Of a stretch of 64,000 nucleotides of DNA, positions 2,982 through 56,497 are shown one piece after another. A model generated the notes under the pieces. That model worked only from the letters and a program-made list of their open reading frames with translations, ran no database searches and was not told where the DNA came from. How positions within the stretch are numbered: position 1 is the stretch's first letter; each line of letters starts with the position of its first letter. Source of the DNA: Somniosus microcephalus (taxonomy: Eukaryota); contig CM126209.1 in the NCBI GenBank assembly GCA_052327205.1, positions 175,026,001-175,090,000 of the forward strand. The letters are read 5' to 3'. The position numbers were made by a program, and so were the translations under genes.

Positions 2982-4863
2982 GGCCCCGATTTTCAGCTTG
3001 TGTGGGAAATGGTCGGGTTTCTCTGAATGTGGGGTTTCTGACACACAAAAAAGTGTGTCAGGCAGCTCCACGCAATTTTCCCTCAAGTGGCCAATTAATT
3101 CCCAGCATGTGGGCAGCCTTGCTAATTGTCCATTTCTAGTCAGAAAGCCCCACATTATGATGTCATCATTTGTGGTGCTTTCAAGGTCCATAGCAAGCAC
3201 TGCATCCTCTGAAGGCTTCCAAATGAACCATCCAGGATGGCAGAGGAGCCTGCAGCAGCTGTGGCCAGTGCCAGACCTCGAGCTGCCTTCAAATTCGATG
3301 AGGCTTCACTGCAGGCATTATTGGATGGGGTTAGGGCCCACAGGGAGGTCCTCTTCCCTAGGTCAGGGAGGAAGAGGCCTCCCACTGAGACCAATGCTGC
3401 ATGGATGCAGGTGTCAGCAGATGCCAACTCGCTGGGAGTCACCAGAAGAACCTTGGCATTACATCTCTAACTCCTTCCTTTAATCCCCCACAGTACCATC
3501 CAGAGCCCCCGTCCTCACTGTGGAGGAGGAAGAGGCTGTGCAGCCAGACTCCTCAGAGGAAGCTCCAACCTCTGAGGGCGCAGCGTCAGCAGAAGTAAGC
3601 GCACCCAGCACCAGCGCAGACACTCACACCTCGGGGGGACCTTTGGGACATAGAGTAGTGTTGTCACCTGGTGTTTCACAGCTCACAAGTGAGCCTCAGC
3701 AGATTCTGGAGACAGGGACAGCAGTGGAGAGTCCTCGTCGGAGGGCGCAGGACTCTGCCAGCTCAGCTCAGCTGCACTGCATGTCAACCCTCTGCCTCTG
3801 GGTCCATCCGCAAGAGAAGAGGTGATGGATCTCCATGCACAGATGCAGGAGTCTCTGGCAGGTTTTGTCTCCAGGGTCGCTGCGAGTGTGGAGCGAATGG
3901 AGGAGTCCATAGCGACCATGAGCAGAGCCTTTGTGGAGTCATTGGCGCATGAACGCATCACCATGGAAAGGTTGGCAACCTCCACGGAGGAGATAACTTG
4001 CCAGGGTACGGAAAACATGGTGAGTGCTCATAAGAGAATGACATCTCTTGAGGCGCGTTGGCCATCTGTTGAACAGAGAAACCAGATCTTCATGGAAGTC
4101 CTTCTGAGTAGGACTGCCAGTGCAGAAATGGGTCCCCATGGCCCCCTAAAGCGCAGCAAGGTGCTCTCAAGCCACTTCCAAGCGCTGGCCCCTTCCGGCC
4201 TGTGCAGCTTCAGGCGAGTGAGCAGCAGCCTGGTGCTCCTGGTGCTCATCCTGCTGTTCCTGGTTCTGCTGCTGCCACCTCTGCTGCTGGAGATCCTCTA
4301 ATGGCAAGAAGAGAAGGAAAAAAAGGCGTTCCATGCTTCTCGTAGATGCCTCCGCTGAGGAAGCGCTGAGTGAGGGTGGCAAGAGGGGCTTCCCAGGAGA
4401 TCGCATTGGAGAAGTGTGTGAGGCTCCAACCTTCCACAGCTGTGCCTAAGCCTTGAAGAAGTAGCCCCAAACCTGCAACAACAAGGTCCTTCAACATACA
4501 AGTGCTGTCCCTTTAAATCGCAGCTTCTCCGATTGACCTGCAGCTGCAAGCAAGCAAGCCAACTGTTTTCACGCCAGGTCTCATCAGCGGGGTTCCCCGC
4601 AGGCGTGTTTCATGTGGGGAAAGACCCAAAATTGCAATGGCCCCTCAAAATCTACTTAAACAAGGTAATAATTGGTGATTAGGGTCCTGACGGCCAGTCC
4701 CGCCAGCAGCGGGCGGGACTGATTCGGGTCGCAGGGAAACAGCAGTCCGAAAGTCTGACGGGGCGGGGAATCAGATGGGGGGCCGTCGTGACCCACTTTT
4801 TCGGCGATTTTCGGCTGCCAGCCGCCTGAAAAGCCGCCCGACGGCTGGCAGAAAATTGGGGCC
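2982..4863 (+). mobile_element. Non-autonomous PIF/Harbinger element carrying only a Myb/SANT-like gene, copy 1 (internally deleted)
   Basis: TIRs GGCCCCGATTTTC / GAAAATTGGGGCC; 3-bp TSD CAT (2979-2981, 4864-4866); Myb exon MAEEPAAAVASARPRAAFKFDEASLQALLDGVRAHREVLFP from 3237; no DDE motifs seen. Confidence 0.88.
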
Positions 4864-12892: not shown

Positions 12893-15062
12893 GGGGCCGA
12901 TTTTCCTGGAGCCATCAGGCGGGCTTTCAGACGTGTGGGGGGGACGGGGGGGGGGAAAAAAATCACAAAAATCGGGGGCCGCGACCCCCCCCCCGCCTGA
13001 TTCCCTGCCCCGTCCAATTTTCACCTAGGCGTTTCTGTCCGACCCGAATCAGTCCCGCCCACAGGAGGCGGGACTGGTCTTCAGGCACCTTAATCACCAA
13101 TAATTGGCATCTATAATGCCATTTTAAGGGGCCCTTGCTATTTTCAGCCTTTTCCCACGTTAAACACGCCTGGTGGGAACCCCACTGGTGAAACCTGGCA
13201 TGGACAATATCAGATTGCTGACTATCAGCTGCAGGTCAATCAGGAAAGAAGAGATTTAATCAGACATCATTTGTAGGTTGCAGGACCTTGTTGTTTCAGG
13301 CTTGGGGCAACTTGTTCCAGGCTTAGGCAGAGCTGTGGAAGGTTGGAGCCTCACACACATCTCCAGTGTGAGCTCCTGGGAAGCCGTAGCCATCCTTTCC
13401 ATGGAGGTTGCCATCCTTTCTGTGGTGATGCGTTCATGCGCCAATGACTCCACAAAGGCTCTGCTCATGGTCGCTATGGACTCCACCATTCGCTCCACAC
13501 TCGCAGTGACCCTGGAGACAAAACCTGCCAGAGACTCCTGCATCTGTGCATGGAGATCCATCACCTCTTCTCTTGTGGATGGACCCAGAGGCAAAGGGTC
13601 GACATGCAGCTGAGCTGAGCTGGCAGAGTCCTGCGCCCTCTGACGAGGACTCTCCACTGCTGTCTCTGTCTCCACCATCTGCTGATGCTCACTTGTGAGC
13701 TGTGATACACCAGGTGACAAAAGTACTCTATCTCACGAAGGTCCCACCGAGGTGTGAGTGTCTGCGCTGGTGCTGGGTGCACTGAATTCTGCTGACGCTG
13801 TGCCCTCAGAGGTTGGAGCTTCCTCTGAGGAGTCTGGCTGCTCAGCCTTTTCCTCCTCTGCAGTGGGGACAGGGGCTCTGCATGGTCCTGTGGGGGAGTA
13901 AAGGAAAGAGTTAAAGATGTGATGCCAAGGTTACATGCACATTGGATTTTGAAGATGCTCATAAGTCCAAATGATGTAGCTTCAGATTCATAACAGCGAC
14001 TCATGCTATGTCAATGAGAGAGATGGAAAACTATTCTGTCACCAGCTTGCGGGACTGCCCGTCTCTCCTTTCCCAACTTCTGCAGCCACATCAGCCCCGA
14101 CAATTTCCAGCACTCCTTGCTCTCAGGGTATCAGGTGGGTTATTGAGGGTGGGCCTCCTCCAGTCCTGGCTCACTCTCTGTTGTTGTGAGCTCTCTTTTC
14201 CTGCAATGAGGGAGACAAGTGGAGTTTGAGTGAGAATGAAGGAGTGAGTGTAGAGATTGCATAGCATAGATACTTAGGGGGAGACAAAGATGGTGTGAGG
14301 CTGCAAGACCAAGGGCCCTCCCTGTGTGTTGTCAGTTGTGTTCAAAGCATCAGAGTGAGAGGGAGTGTGAGGGCTGCATGGTGGAATAGTTATGTAAATG
14401 TGAGCATAGAGAGAGAGGGAATGGGTAAGGGTGCATGGATGTGACTGTGAAGTGGGATGTGGAGGAAGAGAGTGCTAAAGCTGAGTGCTGGTGGGGAAAG
14501 GCAATGGGGATCAGTTTGAGGGTGATGGAAACTTCGTACTTATTTTTCCTGTACGGTGAAGGTCATGGAATTGTTTCCGACACTGTATCCAGGTTCTTCT
14601 GGTTACTCCCAGCGAGTTGACATCTGCTGTCACCTGCATCCATGCAGCCTTGGTCTCAGTGGGAGGCCTCTTCCTCCCTGACCTAGGGAAGAGGACCTCC
14701 CTGTGGGCCCTGACCCCATCCAATAATGCCTGCAGTGAAGCCTCATCGAATTTGGAGGCAGCTCGGGGTCTGGCACTGGCCACAGCTGCTGCAGGCTCCT
14801 CTGCCATCCTGTATGGTTCGTTTGGAAGCCTGCAGAGGAAGCAGTGCTTGCTGTGGACCTTAAAAGCGCCACGAATGATGACATCATACTGTGCGACTTT
14901 CTGACTGGAAATAGTCAATTAGCAAGGGTTCCCACACGCTGGAAATGAATTGGCCAATTGAGGGAAAATTGCATCAATCTGGCAGACCCATTTACATTCG
15001 TGTGGGAACCCCGACATTTGGGGAACCCGACAATTCCCCACACCTGCAGGAAAATCGGCCCC
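12893..15062 (-). mobile_element. Myb/SANT-only Harbinger element, copy 2
   Basis: Perfect TIRs GGGGCCGATTTTCC / GGAAAATCGGCCCC; TSD TTA (12890-12892, 15063-15065); Myb exon 1 (...WMQVTADVNSLGVTRRTWIQCRKQFHDLHRTGK), exon 2 and partial exon 3; about 750 bp deleted relative to copy 3. Confidence 0.93.
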
Positions 15063-19195: not shown

Positions 19196-20019
19196 GGGCT
19201 GGATTTTCATTGAGGAGTCGGGTAGGAGGCGGGACTACAACTTTCGGGGTTGTAGTCCTGCTTCCATCGAGTTCCAGCCAACCCACGTGATTTTGACTTG
19301 ATTGACCTTGTTGAGCCCGCCCAGCGGGCTCAGCAGGCCGATTAAGGGCCACCCGGCAACAAGTGATGTCACAGATTGATATTTCATCTGTCAAGACCTT
19401 TTGACAGATGAAGTATTAGCGTTTCACAGCTGTTTGAAGCTGTCAAACACTGACAATCTGTACTCCAGGTTAATTCCTTCCTGTCAGGATGATTTAGAGA
19501 TCTCCCCTGAAGAGAAAGCTGAATGCTGCAATTTTTGACAGCTCACAGCCATTCTGCTTTCTGTGCCGGTGAGATGAGGGACTCCTAAGACCTGAAGGAA
19601 GGAAGGCTGTAAAGGTATGTAAAACTTTTTTAAACACTTTATACACACCAAACACACTTACCTTTGCACTCATGCACCCGTCACTCACCTGAACACCGGA
19701 CATCTCGACTCCTCCAAGCCCTTCACCCCGACGGTTCGCCTCCTCTAACTTGGCGTGGTTTGGAGCCGTCGGGAATCCCACACTTCAACATTAAAAATAG
19801 GGATTAGGCTAAAAACTGCCTGTTAACTACCTGTTAACAGGCAGTTAATTGGCACTAATCCCCTTCCCGCCTCGGGGAGGCGGGTCCCAGTGCGGGGCGG
19901 GTACCCGCCTTCTTTGAAACTGGCATGGAGGCGGGATGGGTTCGTGCCCCCCGATTTCGGGATTTTAACCCCCCACATGCCTCCAATCCCGCCTCCACGG
20001 CCCAATGAAAATCCTGCCC
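19196..20019 (-). mobile_element. Harbinger-type non-autonomous element (~800-bp family), copy 2
   Basis: TIRs GGGCTGGATTTTCATTG / CAATGAAAATCCTGCCC; TSD TAT (19193-19195, 20020-20022). Confidence 0.9.
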
Positions 20020-27956: not shown

Positions 27957-28168
27957 TGTAGTGTATGTACCTTTAAGAGAGAACTACTTTTACAGCTCCT
28001 GTATACTGTAGTACCGGCAGTGACCACACCTGTATATAAGCCTTGAGCATGCCTCTTTACTGTTAGTCTTTAGACTACCCTCCTCCAGTAAACACCTGTT
28101 GATTGTTAATTTACAGCCTCCGGCCAGTTATTGGAAGACATCATACTTTAAGAATCACAGATTCAACA
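27957..28168 (+). repeat. 5' LTR of Gypsy C (212 bp)
   Basis: TG...CA, TATATAA at ~28033, followed directly by the PBS. Confidence 0.95.
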
Positions 28169-28849
28169 GTGGCGACGAGGTCGATTCGAATCTACCTGCA
28201 ACTCTGCATTTCCTTTCAAGGATTCGTTCCGGGAGGACGGTGGAAGAAAGTCGAGGCCAGAAGCACGGGCGTCGACCACGAGCAACCGCCCAGTCATCCG
28301 GCAGAGAGTGAACATCGCAGGGGAGGCTGTTGAGAGCTGGGCTTGGTTCTCCAGCCACGACGATCCAGCAACAGACTGGCAACAGGTACAGCGCAGACCC
28401 TTCCCGGACAGCGGCGGCTGGAGCCGACCGACGGCACAGAAAAGGCCGAGCAGCGTCGATGGGGTAAGAGAGAGGGTGAAGCGCAGAGGGCGCAGCCGGG
28501 GGTTGAAGACCGAGCGACGTCGAGGAAAACAAAAAGAGAGAGAGGGTAAAGCACAGCCGGGGTTCAGGACTGAGCGGTGGCAACGAGAGAGGCGCACAGG
28601 AGAACGCGCAGAGCGCAGCCAGGGCTAAAAGGGCTGAACAGTGTCCGCGGGGAAGGAAAGGAAGCACGGGAGACGCCATTGAGCCGCGGAGAAAAAGGGA
28701 GAGCGCGGGAGACGCCATTTTAGAAGCCGCAGCAGAGAAGAAGGGCGAGCGTGGGAAGAAAGGAAAGAGCGGGAGATGCCATTTTGTGCCAGCGGAGGAG
28801 AAGGGAGAGCGCGGGAGATGCCATTTTGACAGTTTAATCACACCCAGGG

Positions 28850-31186: not shown

Positions 31187-31568
31187 GAGAGAGAGTGAAG
31201 CGCAGAGGGCGCAGCCGGGGGTTGAAGACCGAGCGACGTCGAGGAAAACAAAAAGAGAGAGAGGGTAAAGCACAGCCGGGGTTCAGGACTGAGCGGTGGC
31301 AACGAGAGAGGCGCACAGGAGAATGCGCAGAGCGCAGCCAGGGCTAAAAGGGCTGAACAGTGTCCGCGGGGAAGGAAAGGAAGCACGGGAGACGCCATTG
31401 AGCCGCGGAGAAAAAGGGAGAGCGCGGGAGATGCCATTTTAGAAGCCGCAGCGGAGAAGAAGGGCGAGCGTGGGAAGAAAGGAAAGAGCGGGAGATGCCA
31501 TTTTGTGCCAGCGGAGGAGAAGGGAGAGCGCGGGAGATGCCATTTTGACAGTTTAATCACACCCAGGG

Positions 31569-35684: not shown

Positions 35685-36184
35685 GGCCTAGAAATTCAGT
35701 TGCGTTCGCCAGCCGTTAGCGCCATAAGAGGGGTAGATTTCGAGCGCTAGGCACTTAGCGCCCGGGCGCAGGCCGATCTGCGCCTACGCCCAACTTCAGT
35801 TGACATTTAGCGCCGGCGCAAAGTGTTTGCGCCCGCTCAGCTGCGCGCGCAGCTTGTGACGTCATTTTGTCGTGCAACGCTGTTTGTGCGCCCCAAACCG
35901 GAAATTCAGTGGCGCCCGCCCAATGTGGGCGTGGCGCTGTTAAGAACTGTGAAGTGGAACGCAGCAGAGGCCCGGCGGGCCTCGGGGAGCGCTAATTAAA
36001 GGGCACTTAGACTGAACTATAAAGGCCAGCCATTTTGCTGCAATGACTTTAGTGCTTTGGATTTCTGGACAGAGACCAAGGAACAGACCTTACTGATTTG
36101 GGACAACATAGGAGAGGTATTTTTGGCTTCTGGCCAGAGCTTGGAAATTTGACTCATTGTGATTTCACTGTTTGCAAGTTTATT

Positions 36185-37333
36185 ATGGGGGCTGCATGGG
36201 GTTCCAACCCTCAGTTCCAGCATTATGTGCGAAGGGCTCGCAGCCGCCATGTGAGAGGGCCAGCCATGCCTAGACGCAGAAGGGCCATCAGGCGTCGGCA
36301 ACGTAGGCCTTACCCACTCAGGGAATACCGGCAGCAGGTGTCCTATCTCACCATGACTGCCGCGCAGTGTGTTAAGAGGCTGCGCTTCAGAAGGGAGGTG
36401 GTTGCAGAGATCTGCCAGCTGCTTCACAGAGATCTGCGTCCACAGCTGATGTGCAGGACGTCTCTGTCGGTGGAAGTGAAGGTCACGGTGGCTCTGAACT
36501 TTTATGCAAGCGGATCCTTCCAAGCCGCTGCTGGGGACATAGCGAACATCTCCCAGTTCGCCGTGCATCGCTGCATCAGGCAGGTCACCGATGCCCTTTT
36601 CGCAAGGAGACACCAATTCATCTCCTTCCCCATGGCCCTAGAGAGGCAGGAGCAGCGTGCAGTCGGATTTGCCAGGATCGCCGACTTCCCCATGGTGCAG
36701 GGCGCCATTGACTGCACGCATGTGGCTCTGCGGGCACCTATCGACAATGCCGAGGATTACCGCAACCGAAAGGGCTACCATTCCCTCAATGTACAGCTGG
36801 TGTGTGACCACAGGCAGCGCATCCTAGCTGTCAATGCCCGCTTTCCAGGAAGCAGCCACGATGCATTTATCCTGCGCCAGACTACTGTGGCTGACATGTT
36901 CGAGGCACAGCCTCCACCAAGGGGATGGCTTATTGGGGACAAGGGCTACCCTTTGTGTACATGGCTCATGACCCCGCTCCGCGCGCCCAGGACCCCTGCT
37001 GAGGAGGCATACAACGAAAGCCATCAAGCCACAAGGAACATCATAGAGCAAACGATTGGCGTCCTCAAGCAACGGTTCCGCTGCCTGGATTGTTCCGGCG
37101 GATCTCTACAGTATTCGCCGGATAGAGTCTCCCAGTTCGTCGTCGTTTGCTGCATGCTGCACAACCTGGCTATCCGCAGGACTCAGGCACTGCCACCTCA
37201 CGTTGGACCACCACCTCAGGAGGACGAGCAGGAGGACCATGAGGAGGAGGAGGAGGAGGAGGAGTACCAGCCCAGGAGGGAGCCACAAGGTCCAAGGGCC
37301 GTCCGCCGGCGGCTTATTGAACGACACTTCTAG
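36185..37333 (+). CDS. Harbinger DDE transposase (HARBI1-like family), 382 aa from the first ATG
   Basis: ALNFYASGSFQ, GAIDCTHV, NRKGYHSLNVQLVCD, FPGSSHDAFIL, WLIGDKGYP, RNIIEQTIGVLKQRFRCL, CCMLHN; no stops. Confidence 0.96.
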   Translation: MGAAWGSNPQFQHYVRRARSRHVRGPAMPRRRRAIRRRQRRPYPLREYRQQVSYLTMTAAQCVKRLRFRREVVAEICQLLHRDLRPQLMCRTSLSVEVKVTVALNFYASGSFQAAAGDIANISQFAVHRCIRQVTDALFARRHQFISFPMALERQEQRAVGFARIADFPMVQGAIDCTHVALRAPIDNAEDYRNRKGYHSLNVQLVCDHRQRILAVNARFPGSSHDAFILRQTTVADMFEAQPPPRGWLIGDKGYPLCTWLMTPLRAPRTPAEEAYNESHQATRNIIEQTIGVLKQRFRCLDCSGGSLQYSPDRVSQFVVVCCMLHNLAIRRTQALPPHVGPPPQEDEQEDHEEEEEEEEYQPRREPQGPRAVRRRLIERHF

Positions 37334-37446
37334 GCCCCCTGTCAGGGAATGGCTTGTGGCAATGAACGCACCTGAATGCAGCCGCTCCGCAAGCCCTCAG
37401 CCGGTTAACGCAACAACCACTTGAAACATGACACCTGGACAAGCTG

Positions 37447-37468
37447 AATAAATAAAAAGCTTTATTTA
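37447..37468. terminator. Back-to-back poly(A) signals for the convergent Harbinger genes
   Basis: AATAAATAAAAAGCTTTATTT has AATAAA on both strands, between the two stop codons. Confidence 0.55.
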
Positions 37469-37672
37469 ACAAACTCAGGGCCCTTCCCACATGAAACAGA
37501 AAAACAGACAAGACCCCCAAAAAACAGTCAAAAACATATCTCACTCCCACAACCTGGGGAGGAATAACAAAACTTGTCCATCCAATTGGCCTTCATCCTC
37601 GGCCTAACCAAGACAAACCCCCCCATACAGAACACAAACACCCCCATATAAAAAAACAGTTGGCAACACACT

Positions 37673-39649
37673 CTACTTGGTGTGCCGAGAGGGCGAGTCC
37701 TTGTGCAGGCTTCTCCGGCCCCTGCCCGACCTGTTGCTCCGCCTCAACCTGGGCCCTCTGGGTGTTGCAAGGCTGGGGGAAGGCTCCTGAGGGGCACAAT
37801 GCGTGACGGCAGATGCCCTTGGGGGTTGGCCTAGGCGAGGTCCGGCCCTGGAGGGGCCGGCTGCTGACTGCTGCAGCTGTGGCTGGGCAGCATCAGTCTC
37901 ACCAGCAGCTCGTCGCAGCTTGGCTGGGGGAGTGGCAGTGGCGGCTGCAGCAATGGGGGCAAGCTGGCTGATGCCAGGCGCTTGCTGGTCGCCAGAGACA
38001 CTGGCACTCGGCCGGGCTGGCACTGCAGCAAGCGCAGCAATCTGGTGAAGGCCAGACCGCTGTGCTGCAGCAGGGCGGTGGGTGCCCTGGCGATGCGTCC
38101 GTGACACAGCGAGTGTGGCAGAAGTGAGTGCCCGAACTGCCCTGGTCTGTGCCCGCATCAGACCAGCCAGTGTCTGCACGGCACCACTCAGGAACTCTTG
38201 ACTCGCGTCCTGTGCTGCCGCGAGTTGGTCGACACCCCTGGCCTGTGAGTCCCCGAAATCGGCCACACTATGAGCCAGGGACTCAATGGCCTGAGGCAAC
38301 TGTCCCACAACCCCCATGAACTCAGTGTGGCGCCGCTCCGAGTCCGCGGACATTTCATCAAGGAGGCGCACCTCCTGGGCGAGGACCGTCTCCGGACTGG
38401 AGGCCGGACTCTCCCTCTGGGGAGAAGGCCGCCGAGCTGCCCGACCCTTCCCGCGTGCCTGGACGCCACTGGGCCCAGCAACTGCCCTCCCCTGCAACAC
38501 TTCCCCCCTCTGGGGAGAAGGCAGCCGTGCTGCCCGACCCTTCCCGCGTGCCTGGACACCACTGGGCCCAGGAGCTACACCCCCCTGCAACACTTCCCCC
38601 TGGCTCTCCTCCAGGCAAGACGTGTCCCCTCCATTGCCATCCCCTGGCGCGGATGAGGGTTCCCCCGATGTGCCGCCTTCCTCTTGGTCCTCGTCGTCCT
38701 CCTCTTCCGAGGGACTGGCACTCTCAGCTTCAGGGACCTCCTCCTCACCAGCTGAAAGCAGGAAGGCACAAGAGTAGTTTTAGAGTGAGGACAGGGCGTC
38801 AGCGAGGGAGGCATGAGTGTTGGCATTATGCGCATTGGTGGGACAGTGGCAAAGGATGTAGATCTGAAGCGCAAGGGGAATGAGAGAGGTCCAAACGGTC
38901 ATGTCCTTACCATTGGGGCCCAGCACAGGGTCGGCATCTCCAATAGCTACGGGGCCAACCACCCGGGCACGCATGAGTCGAGCCACGCACTCCTCCAGGT
39001 CACTGAGCTCCTGGAACTGGACACGGCCTCCCCCGGTGACAGTCCGGCTCTTCAGATTCTGCGCCAGCTTGGCCTGCAAGAGAAAGGATGGCCTCTAAGT
39101 ACAGTGTGGTGCCCTGTTGTTGTGTGCACTGCCTCCCATGGTCGAATAGCTTGGCCAGTGTGGTGCCCTGTTGTTGTGTGCACTGCCTCCCATGGTCGAA
39201 TAGCTTGGCCAGTGTGGTGCCCTGTTGTTGTGTGCACTGCCTCCCATGGTCGAATAGCTTGGCCAGTGTGTAAAGTGCAGAAAGTGCTATTGATGATCAT
39301 GCCAGTGCCATAGCTGCGGGAGGAGGGCTGGCCATTAGGCCTTTGAGGTCCCTTTGCCCATAATGTGAGGTGCACATGCAAGGATGAGGAGGACACTGGA
39401 AAGGGTACTCACCCTGACCAACCGAGTGAGGTCGTTGTACTTCTTGCGGCATTGGTCACCAGTCCTGGGGACATTGCTGTTGGCTGAGACCCTCTGGGCG
39501 ATTTCCCTCCAGGCTCTCCTGTACTGCCTCCTGGGAGCCTTCTTGCCACTGTCCGGGCACAAGATCTCTCTTTTCTTTTCCAAACCCCTAAGCAGCACCC
39601 TCAAAGCATGCTCTGAGAAGCGCTGCGCTCGTTCACGGGCCTTCTGCAT
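37673..39649 (-). CDS. Harbinger Myb/SANT-like DNA-binding protein, 3 exons (39649-39413, 39073-38911, 38751-37673), about 492 aa
   Basis: RAQRFSEHALRVLL...AWREIAQRVSANSNVPRTGDQCRKKYNDL; donors AGG|GTGAGT and ATG|GTAAGG, acceptors TTGCAG and TTTCAG; intron phases 0 and 1 keep a single frame into ORF 37673-38593. Confidence 0.9.
38415..38600. repeat. 93-bp x2 coding tandem repeat in Myb exon 3
   Basis: GEVLQG....GPSGVQARGKGRAAR.PSPQR occurs twice. Confidence 0.9.
39102..39269. repeat. 54-bp x3 perfect tandem repeat in Myb intron 1
   Basis: CAGTGTGGTGCCCTGTTGTTGTGTGCACTGCCTCCCATGGTCGAATAGCTTGGC at 39102, 39156 and 39210. Confidence 0.95.
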
Positions 39650-40014
39650 GGCTTCAGGCGCTATTTGGGTCCACCAGCAGTGTTCAGGCCTAGCTGCAGG
39701 GCTCCACTATCCAGGGCGTGGCAGCAGACAAAGTCGACCCTTCCCCCTTTAAGAGCTGGCCGGCGTCAGGGTGTCTGCTGTCAATCAAAACATGACCGCA
39801 CCTGCGCTGCGCCCGGCCTCGGCGTTATCAGTCTGCACCGCCGGCTTAGCACCTAAAGATAGGAGTGCAACGCCAGTTTCAGCGCTCGCCCAAACTCCTT
39901 GGCCAAAGCTACTGAATATTGGCGAAGTGGCCTCCACTTTCCGGCGGGCGCTAACTTTAGCGCCCGCCCGACTTTACCGCCCCAAAAGTTGCTGCACTGA
40001 ATTTCTAGGCCTTA

Positions 40015-40608: not shown

Positions 40609-42159
40609 GGGCTTGATTTTAATAGCCCTGAGGAGGTGGGTTTGGAGGCGGGTCGGCAGCAAAAATCGGAAAAAATGGCTTCAGACACCCAACCCGCCTC
40701 CACCCAATTTTCATCAGTGTCAGGTCAGCCATTCCCAAACTGACCCAACTGGAACCGGTGGGACAGGTTGTTAGGCAGTTAAGAACCTGTTAACTGCCTT
40801 GCTAATCCTATTTTTATAGTAGTTTCCCATTTTCATCCTTCTGGCTCCTGTTTCCCATTTTGTCAGAAACATGTCAGCTGCAAGGAGACGAGTTTCTTGA
40901 GGACATGAATTGTAGTCATTGGTGCAGCACTTTAAAAATGCTCTTGTAACATGGCTGACATTCAAATGCAACAACTTTGTTGTTGGAGGTTTGGGATAAG
41001 ATTTTGCACATCTACTGACCTTGTGACTGTTCAAGCTGACACCCATCTGCAGTGTTACCTGATTGGAATAATTTCAGGCCACTTTGCGTGTGCGCTTGCA
41101 AGCTTTTTGCCTCAACTGAAATCTATAGCAACGGGATGGGAACTATTTACATCCTCTCATCCTGATCGTCAGGTTCGGAGGAAGCGCAGCCACGGCAGCA
41201 CCACAACCAGCCACAACAGCAGCACCAGCAGCAGGAGCGCCAACCTCCTCCTCATTCACCTGATACTGCACTGGACACAGGGCATCAGCCCCTGACAAAA
41301 TTACTGGTCGGGAGTCCAGCAATGGCATCACCATGGCCAGATGTTCTTTACTTGATGCTGTAAGCCCTGGTTGCCACATGATGTGCCAGGTTGACACCAT
41401 CCCACACCAGCACCGTGAAGCATCCCTTTAATGTCCAAGCCATTCCACGCACACACGTCACTATAGCGGGGGGGGAGGAGTTATGACTGAGCAATCACTA
41501 GAAATCAGTAAGACACTCTTCAATGTGCGCTCAGATCTGTCCAATAAGAGGCACTTTTGGAAAAAGATATTACACTGTATGACAACACATTACCAGAAAC
41601 TTCACATGGACATTGGCTAAAACTCTCAAGTGCCCACCCTTGTGTATTGTTAGTTGGTATGCTTTCAGTAGGGCGAGGATGAATGTGAGAGGTGGCTAGT
41701 GAGATGGGGAAATTATAAAGCAGATAGAGAGTGTTGGTTGGAGGTTCAAGGTAAGTTGATGTCCTGCGGAGGTCTCGTCTGCCCTTGGAAAGGAAGAGAA
41801 CCTCCCTGCATGCTGTGACTCCCGCCATAAGCAAATGGAGGGAGTAATTGGAGAGCCTGGGTGCAAGTGTTTACCTTTGTGCAGTGATTATCAGGGTTTG
41901 CAACACCTCAATGCTGTCAAACACTGACAGATCAATTGTCAAAATAAAATTGTGCGTGGTCCCTTTAAGGAAACTGGCAGATGATGCGTCATGAAATGGC
42001 CTCATCAGACCCGCTTCCTGTTAATTGGCCAGTAAGCCTGCAGAGCGGGCTGAACAAGGCCAATCAAGGGACAATCACATCTGCAGCTGGGGGGCGGGAT
42101 CGGAACCCGGAAACCAGCTGACTCGCCCCCATCTCGCCTCCAGAATTAAATTTGCGGCC
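40609..42159. mobile_element. Harbinger deletion derivative with a Myb remnant
   Basis: TSD GTA (40606-40608, 42160-42162); imperfect TIRs GGGCTTGATTTTAA / TTAAATTTGCGGCC; minus-strand LMAGVTACREVLFLSKGRR at 41834-41770. Confidence 0.65.
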
Positions 42160-42411
42160 GTAATGTAAAATGATCCATGTCACAGATGATACCAAATTAG
42201 TGGTGCATTTGAGTCTGAATAATCAACCAAGGACTAACAAAATTGCCTTGATAACATCTGTAAGTGAGCAGACCAGTAGAAGATGAATTTCAATATGGAT
42301 AAGTGTAAAATGTTGCACATTGGAAGAATAGGGGCAACATACATAGCGCATGAGTGGTGTTGAATAGCTAAGGGTAATGTTGAAAGAGATCTAAGGGAAT
42401 TAGTATACTAT

Positions 42412-43078: not shown

Positions 43079-43311
43079 TATACACTTAACATATCAAGTA
43101 ACAGTGGAGCAGCAGTCAACAAAGCAAACAGAATGTTGAACAATGCTACTCAATAAGCAAAGCATAACATGGCGAATGTCGTGTGCGAAGACCCATGTAA
43201 GCATTGGATAACTGGATCTTCAACAGCTCCCAGACAAAGCTCCAAACAGTTATGTATGTAGAACAGAATGTATTTATTAATAACTAGTAACAAATCAGCA
43301 ACCACAATAAA

Positions 43312-45099
43312 GGGGGAAATTTTTACCTAAAAAAGTGCGTTTGGGAGTGGGCAGGTGGTTAAAAGGGATGAAACTGACAGCCGAGAGGCCGGCTCGAACC
43401 CACCGACTTCCGCTTTTAACTACAGTGCTTTCGGCTGCGTGCGAGGCAGGTTGGCAATTGAAAGATGTTAAGAGGCAATTAGAAGCTAGTAAGAGGCTGT
43501 TTTAACTGCAGATTTGAATTTTAACTCAGAGCACAGGTTTGCCAGATTTGCCAGGCTTCCTAGAACTCACCAGTGAAAGCAAGGCACAAACTGAGGGAGC
43601 TGATCTAATGATAGGCAAACAATCCCATAAGTACTCAGACCTCACACCTGCTTCCTTGTCTAAGCGAAAGGCTCTTGGAAAGTGGGCTTTCACTACTTTG
43701 TAGCTGATTTCCACTACTTCCACTACTGATTTCGGCTACCTTGGATTTTTGAGAGTCTGATCTGCACTTTCCATCTGTCAATCATCAGTTCAGCATGGGT
43801 GCCGCTTATGCAGCTTTACCTTGGACCTCCGTTGAGGGCCAATATGAGCTTTAGCAGCTCCAGCAGCAGCAGAAGCACTAGCAGGAGCAGCAACAGCAGC
43901 CTTCTCCTCACTGACCTGTCACTCCACAGGAAAGAGGGGATGAGCACAGGGGTGCAGCTCGCAGGAGGCGATAGCCCCAGCACAGGGTATATAGGTTCAG
44001 CTTCCTGGACATGTCGGAACACCAGTGTCTCAGGAGGTTCAGGGTCTTGCGTCAGGTGGTCGCAGACATTTGCAGCCTCCTGGAAGAAGACCCCTTGCCA
44101 AGTGGACCTGGTAGGCACGCTTTGCCAGTGGCTGCCAAAGTCACCACCACCCTCAATTTCTTCACTTCTGGCTCCTTCCAGAGATCTGCAAGAGCTATCT
44201 GGAGAATCTCACAACCTGCTGTCCACTCATGTGACTGATGCCATGTTTGCCAGGGCTGGCAATTATGTGCACTTTGCAACTGATGAGGTCAGTCAGAATG
44301 AGCGGGTGCTTGGCTTTGCGGCTCTGTCTGGCTTCCCACAGGTCCATCAATTGCATACAGGTGTCCCCATATCACCCTGGAGCAAGGGCTTCCACTTCAT
44401 CAATGTTCGGCTTGTATGCAACCACAAAGAAATCATCATGCAGGTGTTTGCAAGATTCCCAGGCAACTGCCGTGATGCTTTCATCCTGCACCAGTCCACC
44501 CTCCCAGAGCTCTTCGGACCTCGAAGCAGAGTTAGCGGCTGGCTCCTTGGAGACAAGGGTTACCCCCTGAAGATGTGGCTGATGACACCATTAAGAGTCC
44601 AAACAATGAGGCCCAGGAGATATACAATCAAAGCCACATGACTACGAGAACTGTCATTGAGCAAGCAATCAAAATGCTGAAGGTGCGCTTTAGGTGCCTG
44701 GACAGATAGGAATGGGTGCACCTGCAAGCTAAGTACGTATGAGGAGTGATGTGCTGGAATCGGCTTGGGAAGAGAATCTCCCTGCAGGCCCTTACAGAAT
44801 GCCGCATCAGCTCTAGAGAGGCATCATTTAAGCGACGTGCAGCCTTGCCATGTTGGGACTCCACTAATGTAGTTTCTTCCTCTGTTCCCCCACCTGGACA
44901 ATCCTTCAACTTTCACTTTCGCAGGGTCCCTTTAAACATTCCATGCGTGTTGTCATCATGCCCACTTCCGTTAATTGGTCGGGAAACCCAGAAGTGCAGT
45001 TAAAAAGCCTGTGACAAATGTGCTGCTGAAACTTCCAGGTTCCACACACACTACAGGGCTCCCCTGCTGCCAGCACATTGGACAGTTAAAATTCTGGCC
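43312..45099 (+). mobile_element. Degenerate, internally deleted autonomous-type Harbinger
   Basis: Ends GGGGGAAATTTT / AAAATTCTGGCC; transposase pseudogene on +, Myb exon-1 remnant AARRLNDASLELMRHSVRACREILFP on - (44845-44760). Confidence 0.7.
43930..44710 (+). pseudogene. Harbinger transposase pseudogene
   Basis: Across frames: MSEHQCLRRFR...LNFFTSGSFQ, VTDAMFARAGNYVHF...GFPQV, ARFPGNCRDAFIL, WLLGDKGYPLKMWLMTPLR, TRTVIEQAIKMLKVRFRCLDR. Confidence 0.9.
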
Positions 45100-46225
45100 A
45101 ATATATCAATTGCCATCACTGTCTGACTGGAGCATAGGAACAGGAGTAGGCTATTCAGCCCCATAATCTTGTCCCTTCTTTATGTGCAGAACCTTCTTGC
45201 CTTACATACCCGATTTCCCATTTTCAGGGGTGGAGGAGCCACAGCTCTACTTTACACAGCCCAGTCCCTCAGGGTTGTTACACATGCTAAAAATATACAG
45301 TACTCTGGAAATACTGGACCTTGAATATTGTTTTCTGATCTGGTTACTGTGGCACAAAGAGACATTCAAGTCCTGGAAGTGATGCAGAAAAGATCATAAA
45401 GCTGACCCCTTCATGAGTTATGGGTAAGACAAAAGACACTTGGACTCGTCAGTCTTGAAAGAAAATGATTAAGAGAGAACCTCACAGAAATATATAAGAT
45501 AATGAAGGCTATGGAAAAGGTCAGTCCAGAGGCTACTTCAAATTAAACTGTGACAGTAGGACAAGGGGTCACACATTCAAATTGCCAGAAGATAAATTTA
45601 GGATTGATGTCTGGAAATTCTACTTCACACAAAGACTGATCAACACTTCAGGGTGGATTTTCTGGAGGTGGAAACTTTAGAATAATTTAAGAAACATTCA
45701 AATGCTGTGATGAGGCCTGTGTGTTTTTGTTCTGGATGGATGAGCTGGGATAGGGTAAATAACTTTGCTCAACTGTATGTTTATGATCTTGTGAAATATC
45801 ACTGAAATGTATTCCCACCATTTATTTACTTAAATACCAAGTTCTAACATGATCATTTATCACATGATTGATCCCTTCATGCATCGTGCCTAAAAGAGCA
45901 CATTTACAGGGTAAGATTATGATGAGCTTAATTTTTAATTGACTTGGTTCATGTGTTTGATCTCAGAGCAAAGCCACACCTATGGTTCTGCTTGGCTCAA
46001 CTTGATAATCTTTGGCTCACAACTTCTAGAATATCTCTTCTGTATCTGTGGGGAGCAAAATCAAAAAAATAGCAGTAGCAGAAATGTCTTTTAAATATAT
46101 TAGCTGGCAAATCAGGGTGCAGTTGAGGCAGTAGTTCCAAGCCCAAATGTCTCATGAATTTAACCCAGATGATCCTGGGAGCAAATTACAGATTACACAT
46201 TTTCGAACTGGTATAAAAAAAAAAA

Positions 46226-48975: not shown

Positions 48976-51027
48976 GAAGGATCATGAAAGAGAAAATCTC
49001 TCTACAACTTCTCAAAGCGTTCAAATTATAAATCAGTATGTTGAGAATTGTATAGCTACTTATAATTCTTTCCAGAGTGTCTTAAAATATTTAACACTGA
49101 TGATTTCTCCCTGTAACTTATTTATTGCACAATGTTTGTGTGAATGAAGTTGCCAGGAAGTATGTAAACCCAGGCTTTGTGTATTTAACATTTGTATCCA
49201 GGAGCCTGATTCATCCAGCATCCAGCTGCTGTGCCAGTGGCAACAGCAAGATCAGTTTCATTACATTTTGTAGCTGCATGAGATGGGATTTGAAATGCAT
49301 TATAAATTCAATTGCTTTCTGAGAACAGGAAGTTTATACTGTGTCAAATTTAATGAGATGCTCTAAAAATCTGGTTTATGACAGAATTTTTTGACTCCAC
49401 ACTTGAACCTCTCAACATCCCTGGCAACCCCAAACACATAAAAAAAAGCTTTTATTGGGGTGGTGGTGGTTTTGGGGAGGTGGGGCGGGGGCTGGGTTAG
49501 GGGTATTACTTTGGGAATTCGTCATTGTGTTCTAATGCTGTTTGTAGGACATTTGTTCCAGGACTAGTTATTTTACCAGTAAAATCTATAATAATATACA
49601 AGTTAACACAGGCTGCAGTCTGTTCCAAGGCAGTAAAACATCAAGGGGTTAAGATGCTGTTATAAATCTTAGCGCCTTGTGCTATGGAGGGAAAACATCA
49701 GCTAAAAACTGCTTATCAACTTCACCTCAGGATGTATCACTGCCTCGAAAAGATGGCAGACTATGGTTTGATCCAACTTTTGCTTTCCCATTTTCCTATT
49801 TTATTACAGTAGTGAAGTTGTAATGGCAGACGGCTTAACAAGATCATATGATTTAATGAGTATTAATACTGTACCATGTGATTTGGCAAGTTGGGATTTG
49901 TTCAATTGAATGATGGAAGATTAATATAGTTCAGAGATGTATAATTCATAAATGCTTGTAATTTATTCTGTTTTAAATTACCTTTGACGTATGAGAGGCC
50001 ACAAGGACTATTGCTAAAATGTATTTTAATGCTTCTTGTTACACCACGTGGTACATTAGCTTTATCAATGTGTTTATTTTGATATGGGAAAAATTGGACC
50101 TTTATTTCCTCAATGATTGATTTTCTGGTCCCCACCCAGTGTCAGTGGGACCAGATCACTGCGCATGCAGCACAATCACTTTGTTTGCAGAGATGACCTT
50201 GCTCCTGAAGTTAGCTCATTGCAATCTTTCCTGGATTCGTCCTGCACAGCTTAGATCCAGGCGCAGGGAGCTCCTGCTGATTGTGGGGTGGCATATCCAG
50301 CTCTTAAAGGGCAGTTGTATTTAATATGTACAAAATTCAAAAGCACTTGGTGCACAGTGGAGGGCTGAAGACTCTGGAGCAGGGTCATCCCATTTGAGAA
50401 TGCTGCCCTCAAGACGCTGCTCCGGGTGGTGCCCTCTTTGGAGTTGAGGGTTGTCCTCCTATCAGGAGCAATGTGAGGAATGGGTGTAGGTGGCAGAGAG
50501 AGTGAAATCAGTCCCCAGTGCCCATAGCTCATGGGAGAAAATGAGAAGAAAGCTTCCAGGTTTCAGGAAGATTGCAACAATAGAACTGGCCAGAATTTAG
50601 CTACTTAAAGTATATACCAATAGGATGTTTACCACAAAGTTTACTTTCAACCTGCTGCAGCTTTACTGAGGCCCCATGCAAAACATGCAGGCAACCTTCA
50701 GCTCTTGCATACATGCATATGCATGCTGGTATTACTCTAGGGCCCACTTTGTTGGAGGCACTGAAATACGTTGCACATTCATTTTACAAGTAGTGGCCAC
50801 AAATGAGCTGTTAGCAGTAGCTACATGATACATGTTATATGTTCATTGATTGACATAATGTGGGATGCAGGATGGTTACTTGGGTGTCAATGGGGATGAA
50901 TTTCCATGGGTATTCTCCCGCTCATCCACCATAACTTCATTTGTGCCATTTTTCTGTGGTTTCTATGACTCCTCCACCAAGGTAACAGCAGATGAACTGG
51001 AGAACCCCAGGAAAATCCACACCCAAT

Positions 51028-53906
51028 GGGGCCGATTTTCCCGCAGGTGTGGGGAATTGTCGGGTTCCCCGAATGTCGGGGTTCCCACATGAATGTAAAT
51101 GGGTCTGGCAGATTGATGCAATTTTCCCTCAATTGGCCAATTCATTTCCAGCGTGGGAACTCTTGCTAATTGACTATTTCCAGTCAGAAAGTCACACAGT
51201 ATGCATTGCAACCTCTGCAGGCTTCCAGACAAACCACACAGGATGGCAGAGGAGCCTGCAGCAGCTGTGGCCAGTGCCAGACCCCGAGCTGCCTCCAAAT
51301 TCGACAAGGCTTCACTGCAGGCATTATTGGATGGGGTGAGGGCCCACAGGGAGGTCCTCTTCCCTAGGTTAGGGAGGAAGAGGCCTCCCACTGAGACCAA
51401 GGCTGCATGGATGCAGGTGACAGCAGATGTCAACTCACTGGGAGTCATCAGAAGAACCTGGACACAGTGTCGGAAGCGATTCCATGACCTTCACCGTAAA
51501 GGAAAAGTAAGTATGAAGTTTCCATCACCCTCAAACTGATCCCCATTGCCTTTCCCCACCAGCACTCCGCTTTAGCAATCTCTTCCTCCACATCCCACTT
51601 CAGTCACATCCATGCACCCTTACCCATTCCCTCTCTCGCATTCACATAACTATTCCACCATGCAACCCTCACACTCCCTATCACTCTGATGCTTTGAACA
51701 CAACTGACAACACACAGGGAGGGCCCTTGGTCTTGCAGCCTCACACCATCTTTGTCTCCCTCTAAGTATCTATGCTATGCAATCTCTCCTTCATTCTCAC
51801 TCAAACTCCACTTGTCTCCCTCATTGCAGGAAAAGAGAGCTCACAACAACAGAGAGCGAGCCAGGACTGGAGGAGGCCCACCCTCAATAACCCACCTGAT
51901 ACCCTGGGAGGAAGGAGTGCTGGAAATTGTCGGGGCTGATGTGGCTGCGGAAGGAGAGACAGAGGCAGTCCCGCAAGCTGGTGACAGAATAGTTTTCCAT
52001 CTCTCTCATTGACATAGCATGAGTCGCTGTTATGATTCTGAAGCTACATCGTTTGGACTTGAGCATCTTCAAAATCCAATGTGCATGTAACCTTGGCATC
52101 ACATCTCTTACTCTTTCCTTTACTCCCCCCACAGGACCATACAAAGCCCCCGTCCCCACTGCAGAGGAGGAAGAGGCCGAGCAGCCAGATGCCTCAGAGG
52201 AAGCTCCAACCTCTGAGGGCGCAGTGTCAGCAGAATTCAGCGCACCCAGCACCAGCGCAGATACTCACACCTCGGTGGGACCTTCGCAAGATAGAGTAGT
52301 GTTGTGACCTTGTGTATCACAGCTCACAAGTGAGCATCAGCAGATGGTGGAGACAGGGACAGCAGTGGAGAGTCCTTGTCGGAGGGCGCAGGACTCTGCC
52401 AGCTCAGCTCAGCTGCATGTCGACCCTCTGCCTCTGGGTCCATCCGCAAGAGAAGAGGTGATGGATCTCCATGCACAGATGCAGGAGTCTCTGGCAGGTT
52501 TTGTCTCCAGGGTCGCTATGAGTGTGGAGCAAATGGAGGAGTCCATAGCGACCATGAGCAGAGCCTTTGTGGAGTCATTGGCGCATGAACGCATCACCAC
52601 GGAAAGGATGGCAACCTCCGTGGAAAGGATGGCTACAGTAGGAGAGGATGGCTACGGCCATGGAGGAGCTAAGTCGCCAGAGTGTTAAAAACATGGTGAG
52701 TGTTCAGAATAGACTGACATCTCTCGAGGAGCGATGGTCAGCTATTGAGCAGAGAAACCAGACCTTCATGGCAGGCCCTCTGTAGAAACCATTGTAGAAA
52801 CAGGTCCCCATGGCCCCCCTGATGTGCAGCAAGCTGCTCTCAAGCCATTTGCAGGCACTGAGGGGGACCTGACCCATGAGAGGGAGGTTGGTGGCAGACC
52901 TCAAGGAAATCGGGGCTCCTCTCCAAGCGCTCACACTTCCATGCCACTGCAGAGCCCTCGGTCAGAGCCCCGCTGGAGTCCACACCCAACGGAGATAGAG
53001 GTCTCAACCCCTGCACAGCCGCAGGAGCAGCAGACTGCTGGCGAGCATTTACAGGCTCGCCATCCCAGAGGACCGCCCGCCAAAGGTGTCGAGACAGGAG
53101 GAGCAGGAAAGTGAGCAAGGGGCCTCCACATCTGCTGTAGCCACAGGGGAACCACTACATAGGAGCACGCGTAAGAGGAAAATAAAGCACAAATAGTCAC
53201 AAGGGTAGTCACTTGGGTGAAATGTGTTTATTTGAAAGATGCCATCAGCTGGTTATTGTAAATAAAATTTCTGATGGCAACTTCTGCAGTTGTGGCGTGT
53301 GTCATTTCGCGAATGGGGCTGGAGGTCCTCAAATGCCAAGAGGGGAAGGAAAATAAAGCCTCCCATGCTTCTGGTAGGTGCCTCAGTTGAGGAAGCGCTG
53401 AGTGAGGGTGGCGAGAGGGACTTCCCAGGACCTCACACTGGAGAAGTGTGTGAGGCTCCAACCTTCCACAGCTGTGCCTAAGCCTGGAACAAGTTGGCCC
53501 AAGCCTGAAACAACAAGGTCCTGCAACCTACAAATGATGTCTGAATAAATCTCTTCTTTCCTGATTGACCTGCAGCTGATAGTCAGCAATCCGATACTGT
53601 TCACGCCAGGTTTCATCAGCGGGGTTCCCACCAGATGTGTTTAACGTGGGAAAAGGCTGAAAATAGCAAGGGCCCCTTAAAATGGCATTATAGATGCCAA
53701 TTATTGGTGATTAAGGTGCCTGAAGACCACTCCCACCTGCTGCGGGCGGGACGGATTCGGGTTGGACAGAAACGCCTGGGTGAAAATCGGACGGGGCGGG
53801 GAATCAGGCGGGGAGGGGGGGTCGCGACCCCCTATTTTTGAGATTTCCCCCCCCCCCCCCCCACACGCCTGAAAGCCTGCCTCACGGCTCCAGGAAAATC
53901 AGCCCC
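51028..53906 (+). mobile_element. Myb/SANT-only Harbinger element, copy 3 (longest, 2879 bp)
   Basis: TIRs GGGGCCGATTTTC / GAAAATCAGCCCC; flanks AAT/CAT; complete 3-exon Myb gene layout; no transposase motifs. Confidence 0.92.
51243..53195 (+). pseudogene. Myb/SANT-like gene of copy 3: exons 51243-51506, 51830-51980, 52135-~53195
   Basis: Donors AAA|GTAAGT and CTG|GTGACA, acceptors TTGCAG and CCACAG, phases 0 and 1; EKRAHNNRERARTGGGPP in exon 2; premature TGA at 52305 (TCA in copies 1 and 2) and later frameshifts; ends HRSTRKRKIKHK*. Confidence 0.85.
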
Positions 53907-55682
53907 CATGTCTCTGCTCTTCCAAATTCCCCAAAACTGTACATTCTGTATCTATATACAGGAAAAGGGTGATTGAAAGTGGACCTGCCCCCCCCACCCC
54001 CAAGATGCTGCTCCGGGTGTTGCTCTCTTTGGAGTTGAGGGTTGTCCTCCTATCAGGAGCAATGTGAGGAATGGGTGTAGGTAGCAGAGAGAGTGAAATC
54101 AATCTCCAGTGCCCATAGCTCATGGGAGAAAATGAGAAGAAAGTTTCCAGGTTTCAGGAAGATTGCACTCAGAGGTTCTATGCCCCAGCTGCAGTTTTTC
54201 TCAAGGGGTCTATAGTCCCAATGTACATGGATCTTCTTGTCTGGATTTAGAGAGCCATTATGCAGGGCTTCAACAAGTTCAGTACTACCCAGTAACTTAT
54301 TTCCCTGCAGATCACTGGACATGCTGAGGGAGTGCCCAGCAAAAGGGGCATGACAAGAATTAGCATGGATGATGAAGCTGTTATGCAGGGCAACACCGTA
54401 TCATTCCTACATCCTGCTTAAATGAGTCTCAATGTGTCAGTTAGTATGTAGGACCATAAAGGCACCAGAACATTAAACACATTGCCATTGGTTGCAGAGC
54501 CATTTCATGACCCAATTCAAGGAGGTACTGAATCAACTCCATCCCAAAAGCTTGCACCAGCAGCCAGATACCACACTTCCTCCAACCACTGCAAAAGCTC
54601 TTAGAAGGACCACAAAGTTAGGTCATAGAGGACATGCACCATATGCTGTCACAAAGGGGAAGCACCAAGCTAAGAAATACAGAACATGTTTGTATGTCAC
54701 ATTATTAGAGGAAATAAAATGGGTTTACTTTATTCGTGATGGTGCAGATTATGGTGGCAGCAAATGAATGAATTGCTAGCCTTTATAGTTAAAGTAAGGC
54801 ATAAGACAATGGTGCAGATAGCGTATTGGGCACTTCATTGTATATATTCGGACTGAACTATTTGTGATGGAGTGGACACTTGTGAAATTTTTTTCGATTT
54901 GAGCTTGCTGAAAGACTCCTTGTCGCAGTTAAGGCTCAGCAGATAAGTCTTCAGACTTGATCTCAGTGTAACCACATATGCCTCATTATATTGCTGTTTA
55001 CCTTGTGTCCATGGTCATCTCAAGGAGGTCTTCAGTCAGGGCTGAAAAGAGTATCCTTAATCACCCACGAGTCATCCATCCACTCTTCTTCTCCCATCAA
55101 ATAGGGATGGCATGGTGGATTGTCCTAAAAATGAAGGCATCATGATTTACCAGAGTAGCGGGCATCAATGTGCATGGCTTTGTGCGTATGATTATAGCCA
55201 GTTGCACAGAAATGGAATGGAAACCTTTCTATTCATGAAATCAATGAGAATAGGGCCACGAGACCCCTCTATAATTCCTGGCACTTTAGGGAAACATGTA
55301 CATGGAAAAAGTGCTGTGTTCTCTTCTGCTGCTGGTTGCTTCCCAAAGGGAAAGTAATGAAAGCATTGACATGACAAAGAGGGCATCTGTGGCCTGTGCT
55401 ATGCATCAGTGCACATTGGATTGAGTAATTAAGTATATATCTCTGAGATAGTTTGAAATGACTGAAATCAGATAAAAGTCCTCTGCTGTGGTCACTTTAA
55501 AGCCACCAGCAGAACTGTCTCTATCATTGATCTTATCTGAAGGTCCAGCTTCAGGAGATGGCATAATTATGTTACTGCCTTCCGAGTGAAATGTAAAAGG
55601 TGAAGATAGATTTTGCGAAACATATCTAGATAGCTGTGTCTTAATCTGTAGACAAGGCTGGTTGTGTAAGGGCAGAGGCAGA

Positions 55683-56497
55683 GGGCTGGATTTTCATTGA
55701 GGAGGCGGGTAGGAGGCGGGACTACAACTTTCTGGGTTGTAGTCCCGCCTCCATCGAGTTCTAGCCAACCCACGTGATTTTGACTTGATTGACCTTGTTG
55801 AGCCCGCCCAGCAGGCTCAGCAGGCCAATTAAGGGACACTCGGCAACAGGTGATGTCACAGATTGATATTTCATCTGTCAAGACCTTTTGACAGATGAAA
55901 TATCAGCATTTCCCAGCTGTTTGAAGCTGTCAAACACTGACAATCTATACGCCAAGGATGATTTAGAGATCTCCCTGGAACAGAAAGCTGAATGCTGCAA
56001 TTTTTGACAACTCACATCCATTCTGCTTTCTGTGCCGGTGAGATGAGGGACTCCCGAGACCTGAAGGAAGGAAGGCTGTAAAGGTAAGTAAAGGTATATA
56101 AAACTTCTTTAAACACTTTACACACACCAAACACACTTACCTTTGTACTCATGCACCCATCACTCACCTGAACACCGGACATCTCGAACCCTCCAAGCCC
56201 TTCATCCCGACGGTCCGCCTCCTCTAACTTGGCATAGTTTGGAGCCGTCGGGAATCCCACACTTCAACAAAAATAAGGATTTTGCTAAAAACTGCCTGTT
56301 AACTACCTGTTAACAGGCAGTTAATTGGCACATAATCCCCTTCCCGCCTCGGGGAGGCGGGTCCCAGTGCAGGTCGGGTACCCGCCTTCTTTGAAACTGA
56401 CATGGAGACGGGTTGGGTGTGGGATCGGTTCCTGCCCCCTGATTTCGGGATTTTAACCCCCCCCCCACATGCCTCCAAGGCCCAATGAAAATCCTAC
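55683..56497 (-). mobile_element. Harbinger-type non-autonomous element (~800-bp family), copy 3
   Basis: Left TIR GGGCTGGATTTTCATTG; colinear with 19196-20019; right TIR damaged (CAATGAAAATCCTAC). Confidence 0.88.

Follow-up and report, generated by a model that had tools for sequence, protein, structure and literature searches.

The 64-kb window, which is the whole stretch of DNA that was analysed, contains three related transposable elements, delimited by self-comparison and alignment (Table 1). Their terminal inverted repeats are 14–16 bp long and match at 13 of 14 positions in copy 1, 16 of 16 in copy 2 and 13 of 14 in copy 3. The 3-bp flanks form exact pairs in copy 1 (CAT/CAT) and copy 2 (TTA/TTA), and those of copy 3 (AAT/CAT) correspond to a duplication agreeing at two of three bases. 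With this reservation for copy 3, the view of the preliminary description that these are three separate insertions with inverted ends and differing 3-bp flanks was confirmed. The TWA consensus given in the available text of PMC13668399 was matched by the duplication of copy 2 only. As regards a possible extended target preference, GTCT follows the duplication at one of its two sides in each of the three copies and in the local autonomous Harbinger element (4/4), but not in three other listed elements, as a plain count. Since the elements are 1.9–2.9 kb long and carry Myb exons, they are not short coding-free Tourist-like MITEs. They belong to the PIF/Harbinger superfamily as non-autonomous elements.

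Table 1. Coordinates of the three elements, their predicted genes and the comparison element in the 64-kb window.
Feature	Position	Strand	Description
Copy 1	2982..4863	+	Likely mosaic Harbinger derivative
Copy 2	12893..15062	-	90-97% identical to copy 3 depending on region
Copy 3	51028..53906	+	2879 bp, non-autonomous, whole Myb gene layout, transposase frame deleted
Left terminal inverted repeat, copy 3	51028..51041	+	Flank AAT
Right terminal inverted repeat, copy 3	53893..53906	-	Flank CAT
Predicted Myb exon 1, copy 3	51243..51506	+	88 codons; residues 18-86 form the Myb/SANT domain (PF13873)
Predicted Myb exon 2, copy 3	51830..51980	+	151 bp, intron phases 0 and 1
Predicted Myb exon 3 remnant, copy 3	52135..53196	+	Basic tail, polyadenylation-like hexamer at 53261
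Likely transposase start, copy 3	53319..53366	-	16 codons, 540 bp from right end; position, orientation, weak profile match
Likely transposase start, copy 1	4182..4334	-	About 51 codons, 529 bp from right end
Autonomous Harbinger, another family	35685..40011		Comparison element, duplication TTA, 16-bp perfect ends
Transposase of autonomous Harbinger	36185-37333	+	Open, 382 codons, convergent with Myb
Three-exon Myb of autonomous Harbinger	39649-37674	-	Open when spliced, about 490-500 codons

Contigs of the public run X1 cross both junctions of copy 3 with zero differences. Run X12, from another organism, gave a 1482-base contig (depth 11.1) that aligns with 50800–51025 and then continues for 277 further bases; the right flank of copy 3 was also present in X12 at depth 11.1. 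This contig is likely the empty site of copy 3, the joint itself not being among the matches listed. Copy 3 is bracketed by a 171-bp direct repeat with 95% identity (50406–50576 and 53997–54167). Copy 1 seems to be located where a gag-like frame of the minus strand (2514–2981) has its start codon, and the CAT duplication of copy 1 is the complement of that codon.

In copy 3, the layout of the Myb gene is whole. The PF13873 match of its exon 1 has an E-value of 3e-11. The predicted introns, 51507–51829 (323 bp) and 51981–52134 (154 bp), have GT-AG borders and phases 0 and 1. In the Myb gene of the local autonomous element, the introns are approximately 318 and 159 bp long and their phases are identical, which confirmed the agreement noted in the preliminary description. 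The spliced frame of copy 3 aligns over both junctions with the autonomous Myb and over the first junction with a database protein. Based on the GT-AG borders, the phases and sizes shared with the autonomous element and the alignment over the junctions, the predicted two-intron gene model of copy 3 is sound.

An open Myb frame was found in none of the three copies. In copy 3, the frame is broken by a stop at 52305 as well as by frameshifts near 52640, 52750–52790 and 53073. Copy 2 has a donor changed from GT to AT at 14543, stops at 14173, 14125 and 13735, an exon 2 that is out of frame, and no 3' part. In copy 1, exon 1 is cut at codon 71 of 88, within the PF13873 domain, exon 2 is lost, and exon 3 contains a 5-bp frameshifting insertion. 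This Myb/SANT-like second gene is present in all three elements as broken remnants only. It had been stated that each copy carries the same Myb gene and that the family keeps this gene in spliced form; neither statement was confirmed, as every frame is broken and copy 1 is without a large segment of the gene. A domesticated Harbinger Myb gene, such as NAIF1 or MSANTD, was considered and rejected because of the multi-copy state, the inverted ends, the broken frames and the likely empty site in X12.

Pairwise dN/dS, a weak test here because it compares dead copies with mostly neutral private changes and not subfamily consensuses, was 0.62 for one pair (p = 0.19, over 299 codons) and, over 235 codons in each case, 1.16 and 0.95 for the other two. 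None of these values differed from 1 (p = 0.19–0.86). Exon 1 alone gave 0.37–0.57, none significant (p = 0.14 for 0.37). As far as this test reaches, it ran against the earlier claim that the family spread by supplying its own adaptor.

No DDE domain was found in any copy below iE 0.1 with a profile of 68 database transposases, the best value being 0.12 and compositional. The same profile detected three control remnants in the window at 7e-49, 3e-22 and 9e-6. The reported lack of DDE motifs was thereby confirmed, and the description of the elements as transposase-less Harbinger derivatives requiring transposase in trans was upheld.

Copies 1 and 3 contain a short minus-strand stub (Table 1) with a common ATG and a hydrophobic frame start, which in copy 1 goes on into a Gln/Glu-rich tract. 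The transposase ATG of the local autonomous element lies 500 bp from the element end, and the gene faces Myb. In copy 3, an opposite-strand polyadenylation-like hexamer is present at 53227–53232, and convergent hexamers of this kind overlap here just as they do in the autonomous element. The score of the copy 1 stub against 41194–41274 was reached by 0 of 2000 codon shuffles and its score against the DDE remnant that begins at 43795, compared at its start, by 19 of 2000. No match was obtained with the start of the local autonomous transposase (1891 of 2000 shuffles), and the best-matching region, 41136–41330, itself has no transposase domain in the profile search.

Start profiles were based on the 20 of 120 database transposases that pass a completeness rule, 13 of which share the commonest start. 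Among 2352 window ATGs compared over 16 positions, the ATG of copy 3 ranked 4th with the 13-start profile and 24th with the 20-protein profile. The ATG of copy 1 ranked 5–8 at 30 positions and 379–434 at 16, and unrelated ATGs of the window outranked both stub ATGs. The copy 1 stub had 0 matches among 1.84 billion database representatives and no usable match in Atlas. Sharks and rays account for nearly all database relatives of the autonomous transposase, which makes a cartilaginous fish the likely host; chondrichthyan proteins annotated as "putative nuclease HARBI1" are 43–67% identical to it, and their starts resemble the stub in layout. Among the 120 listed of 307 database transposase hits, the stub gave compositional scores only, and none was close enough to be this family's transposase. 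Taken together, the minus-strand stub is likely a transposase start.

Alignment of the three copies showed three different deletion sets, with none in common. Copy 1 is without positions 51455–52088 of copy 3, with a 5-bp microhomology at the joint, and also without about 52861–53317. Copy 2 is without about 52640/52658–53420, by which the 3' part of Myb and the stub are gone, and copy 3 has a deletion junction at about 53318. Since copy 1 has approximately 100 bp of the stub missing from copy 3, and copy 3 has approximately 450 bp missing from copy 1, neither derives from the other. If the stub is a transposase start, there were at least two losses of the transposase, as each of these copies retains sequence that the other lost; the ancestor likely carried convergent Myb and transposase genes. 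The idea that the family spread as one unit ran against this breakpoint check, in which each copy has private breakpoints. The preliminary description had overlooked these copy-specific deletions, the likely minus-strand transposase start and the divergence of about 25% between the ends of copy 1 and those of copies 2 and 3. An antisense splice as the source of the joint 51454>52089, which has CT..AC ends, was rejected, as the DNA of copy 1 contains the joint with its microhomology.

The family was found in both organisms examined at a depth thousands of times that of unique flank; the reads were taken at ≥85% likeness and pool many loci, so contig depth is not copy number. At least 20 public runs contain part of the family (20 of 24 listed), none of those listed being an RNA run. 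In X1, a 5-bp frameshifting insertion at 52411, the same as that of copy 1 except for one base, had a depth of 4057 in seven contigs (flank 13.7); it was at 0 in X12. A deletion that removes exon 2 (51770>52351) had a depth of 541 in X12, compared to 11.1 for the flank. In the two RNA runs, which were selected by species label, the deletion joint of copy 1 was covered by 30 and 21 reads and a second, neighbouring deletion by 7 and 50. These Myb-breaking lesions are hard to see as single-copy, and Myb-dead derivatives likely spread too. Their multi-copy depth suggests that an intact Myb in cis is unnecessary for spread.

The frameshift of copy 3 at 53073 was missing from 146 of 219 and 102 of 167 family reads, and that at 52639 from 65 of 112 and 38 of 103. 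Given so many reads without these lesions, the Myb frame of the family was probably open. No canonical Myb splice joint occurred among the 15 of 86 joints listed, for which the threshold was 5 reads in 100, so rarer spliced reads are possible. In each RNA run, intron 1 had a greater depth than exon 1. Both runs show a reversal of RNA strand bias between 52798–53130 (Myb 3' part) and 53353–53574 (stub region), a pattern that convergent transcription would give; in X24, the bias is opposite at 52243–52797. Word-based protein searches, which are weak evidence, yielded no relatives of greater length for exon 1 or for a piece of exon 3.

The ends of the elements were compared with those of the autonomous family. 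The motif GGGAACCC occurs nine times, eight of them within the three copies (2.1 expected by chance; 0 of 100 shuffles), and TAGCGCC has 13 matches, none of them within the copies. The subterminal motif is unlike that of the autonomous element, as first proposed. Copies 2 and 3 are uniformly about 95% identical. Compared to both of them, copy 1 is only 73–78% identical in its ends and 92–97% in the Myb block (dS 0.065). Transversions in copy 1 affect 77 of 506 sites in the ends versus 20 of 743 in the Myb block (p = 6e-16), and a comparison of copy 2 with copy 3 gives no contrast of this kind (p = 0.47). CpG decay was rejected as the reason for the divergent ends, because the contrast persists in transversions and at non-CpG sites (p about 1e-16). 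Copy 1 is likely a mosaic that arose when subfamilies with unlike ends exchanged the Myb block; faster evolution of the ends than of the Myb block is the alternative. Such a mosaic bears on the matching of Myb specificity with end sequence. Loose read ends were seen at 51501 and 51973, where hundreds of RNA reads join intron sequence to other versions of exon 1 or exon 2, pointing to further mosaic subfamilies.

The reading that we favour, and consider probable, is that all three are dead Harbinger copies without a transposase, deletion derivatives of a two-gene parent of about 4 kb that were moved by the proteins of intact relatives. In the parent, the Myb and transposase genes would have stood face to face, an arrangement that the local autonomous element shows. 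Deletions, in some cases at short microhomologies, would then have removed the transposase frame at least twice, leaving about 51 codons in one case and 16 in the other. Derivatives with intact ends would go on jumping irrespective of Myb function, with both proteins coming in trans from intact relatives, and the Myb block would have been swapped between subfamilies having different ends. The same window contains a remnant with mostly transposase (43300–45105) and an element with both genes lost (40610–42160), which were counted for an origin by deletion. Against it, all three copies lost the transposase yet retain much of Myb, and the deletion in copy 3 leaves the Myb gene in its full extent together with its 3' signal. 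A full-length parent with these ends was searched for with two exact 25-base patterns, which gave 0 loci in metagenome contigs, and one pattern gave 0 in genome contigs; these collections could not show most shark genomic copies. Myb exon 1 had no relative in viral contigs.

Copies 2 and 3 might instead descend from a Myb-only master with a working Myb, amplified by the transposase of a few survivors of the same family, with the present lesions being later decay; such a course has been proposed for Harbinger-1M of C. inopinata. This is rather unlikely, although several observations are consistent with it. The deletion in copy 3 takes little besides the transposase frame, and that in copy 2 covers the copy 3 junction and is possibly a further deletion of one master. 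The even identity of these two copies, the many family reads free of the copy 3 frameshifts, the Myb-sense-looking RNA over the 3' part of the gene, and the low dN/dS of exon 1 (0.37, p = 0.14) point in the same direction. However, the 53318 junction is found in one copy only, copy 1 represents a separate transposase loss, and Myb-dead derivatives at multi-copy depth argue that a working Myb in cis is unnecessary. The RNA data also tell against a working gene, as the listed joints include no canonical splice and intron 1 exceeds exon 1 in depth. We give still less credence to an extended form, in which a very abundant shark Myb cassette was traded between Harbinger subfamilies whose ends differ, and a Myb-only master resembling copy 3, its spliced gene functional, amplified beyond the transposase-bearing parent because of selection on the Myb. 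This would be a vertebrate example of split-function Harbinger transposition combined with cassette exchange.

The strong form of the preliminary description held that the whole family has no own transposase and, by means of its own Myb and subterminal motif, borrows one from a Harbinger family unrelated to it. The motif and ends do differ from those of the local autonomous element, the searches made found no transposase of the same family, and the proteins of Ping and Pong cross-complement according to the accessible part of PMC2836001. On the other side, the collections searched are blind to most shark genomic copies, and the likely stubs of two lengths imply that a transposase of the same family persisted until after the lineages split. 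Fish transposase and Myb trees are also largely congruent in the available portion of PMC9179366. Spread of the family as one unit by its own Myb adaptor was not supported by the private breakpoints, the dN/dS values not differing from 1 or the Myb-breaking lesions at multi-copy depth, and we regard this strong form as very improbable; for the lineage of copies 2 and 3 alone, spread by an own adaptor may still apply. Least credible of all is a stub of chance low-complexity sequence, with a single ancient loss of the transposase in a shared founder: the missing database match, the ease with which CAG-rich DNA aligns and the modest profile ranks would fit it, and they are opposed by the position, orientation and start codon retained in both copies, the shuffle-controlled matches to the starts of two other elements and the reversal of RNA strand bias.

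These results were compared with known Harbinger systems. Binding of the ends by a Myb-like protein serves to recruit the transposase, as described in the accessible text of PMC2836001. The same text attributes a two-protein mechanism, a 3-bp duplication and an extended target preference to Harbinger3_DR/Harbinger3N_DR and to Ping/Pong/mPing. Harbinger3N_DR and mPing are deletion derivatives moved in trans that keep no coding sequence, whereas the shark copies keep 1–2 kb of Myb. Solo-ORF Harbingers are already in print for Laticauda and Caenorhabditis inopinata, in the parts of the reports available. In Laticauda sea kraits, multi-copy solo-ORF Harbinger-Snek variants were described in 2021 (PMC8437027, available portion). 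They resemble the shark copies in the solo-ORF state. Intact parents were also tallied in the sea krait genomes, whereas none was retrieved for the shark family and all three of its Myb remnants are broken.

In C. inopinata, according to the accessible portion of a 2026 report (PMC13668399), the MADF-only derivatives Harbinger-1M_cIno and -2M_cIno expand, with DDE supply in trans being hypothetical. Like the shark copies, they keep only the DNA-binding gene as a result of internal deletion. These derivatives outnumber the DDE copies, trans supply is proposed, and -2M is without a detectable DDE source. Of 19 MADF-only copies, 14 are intact; expression is reported for several and a jump under laboratory conditions for one. 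The shark copies differ in that none of three is intact and no spliced reads occur among the listed joints. They keep the region of the DNA-binding gene without DDE but, judged by these three copies, do not qualify as an intact Myb-only subfamily.

As it stands, the outcome is an ordinary one, namely another Harbinger family decaying by internal deletion. If a Myb-only master under selection did exist, the C. inopinata model would extend to vertebrates, and it could be tested whether a cis adaptor gene gives an element an advantage in competing for transposase. This cartilaginous-fish-like genome is densely populated with Harbingers, in contrast to the elephant shark, where the available part of PMC9179366 reports none and calls for checks of further species. 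That text also reports no single-ORF Harbinger in teleosts, so the earlier statement that Myb-only derivatives had been noted in teleosts was not borne out. The accessible portions of PMC5741667, PMC9392472 and bioRxiv 2022.10.19.512763 mention no Myb-only elements. A search of the openly accessible literature, outside Repbase and Dfam, listed no paper on the shark family.

The window contains several other elements. The young-looking autonomous Harbinger has inserted into a Gypsy-type retrotransposon, within its 3' LTR; the matching 5' LTR occupies 27957–28169. This retrotransposon has a 2.7-kb gag-pol tandem duplication (98.7%) at 28430–33866, which is either real or an assembly artefact. 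The Harbinger-like element at 40610–42160 has lost most of both genes and retains a transposase-like start at 41136 (+) and a Myb start remnant at 41888–41730 (-). The remnant at 43300–45105, of which the left end was not located, has most of the transposase (43795–44706) and only the start of Myb (44882–44766), a mirror image of copies 1–3. Older minus-strand transposase remnants lie at 54967–55668 and at 12643–12761, the latter 130 bp from the end of copy 2.

A non-coding repeat of 800 bp, whose inverted ends are Harbinger-like, occurs in three copies (87–93%) at 7985–8761, 19196–20019 and 55683–56495, the last of which adjoins the older transposase remnant, and it is likely a MITE family. 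A 45-bp part of this repeat (19969–20013) matches the right end of copy 3 at 80%. The element from 60115 to about 60860 has a left end like that of the autonomous family and four TAGCGCC matches, and it is likely a non-autonomous relative of that family.
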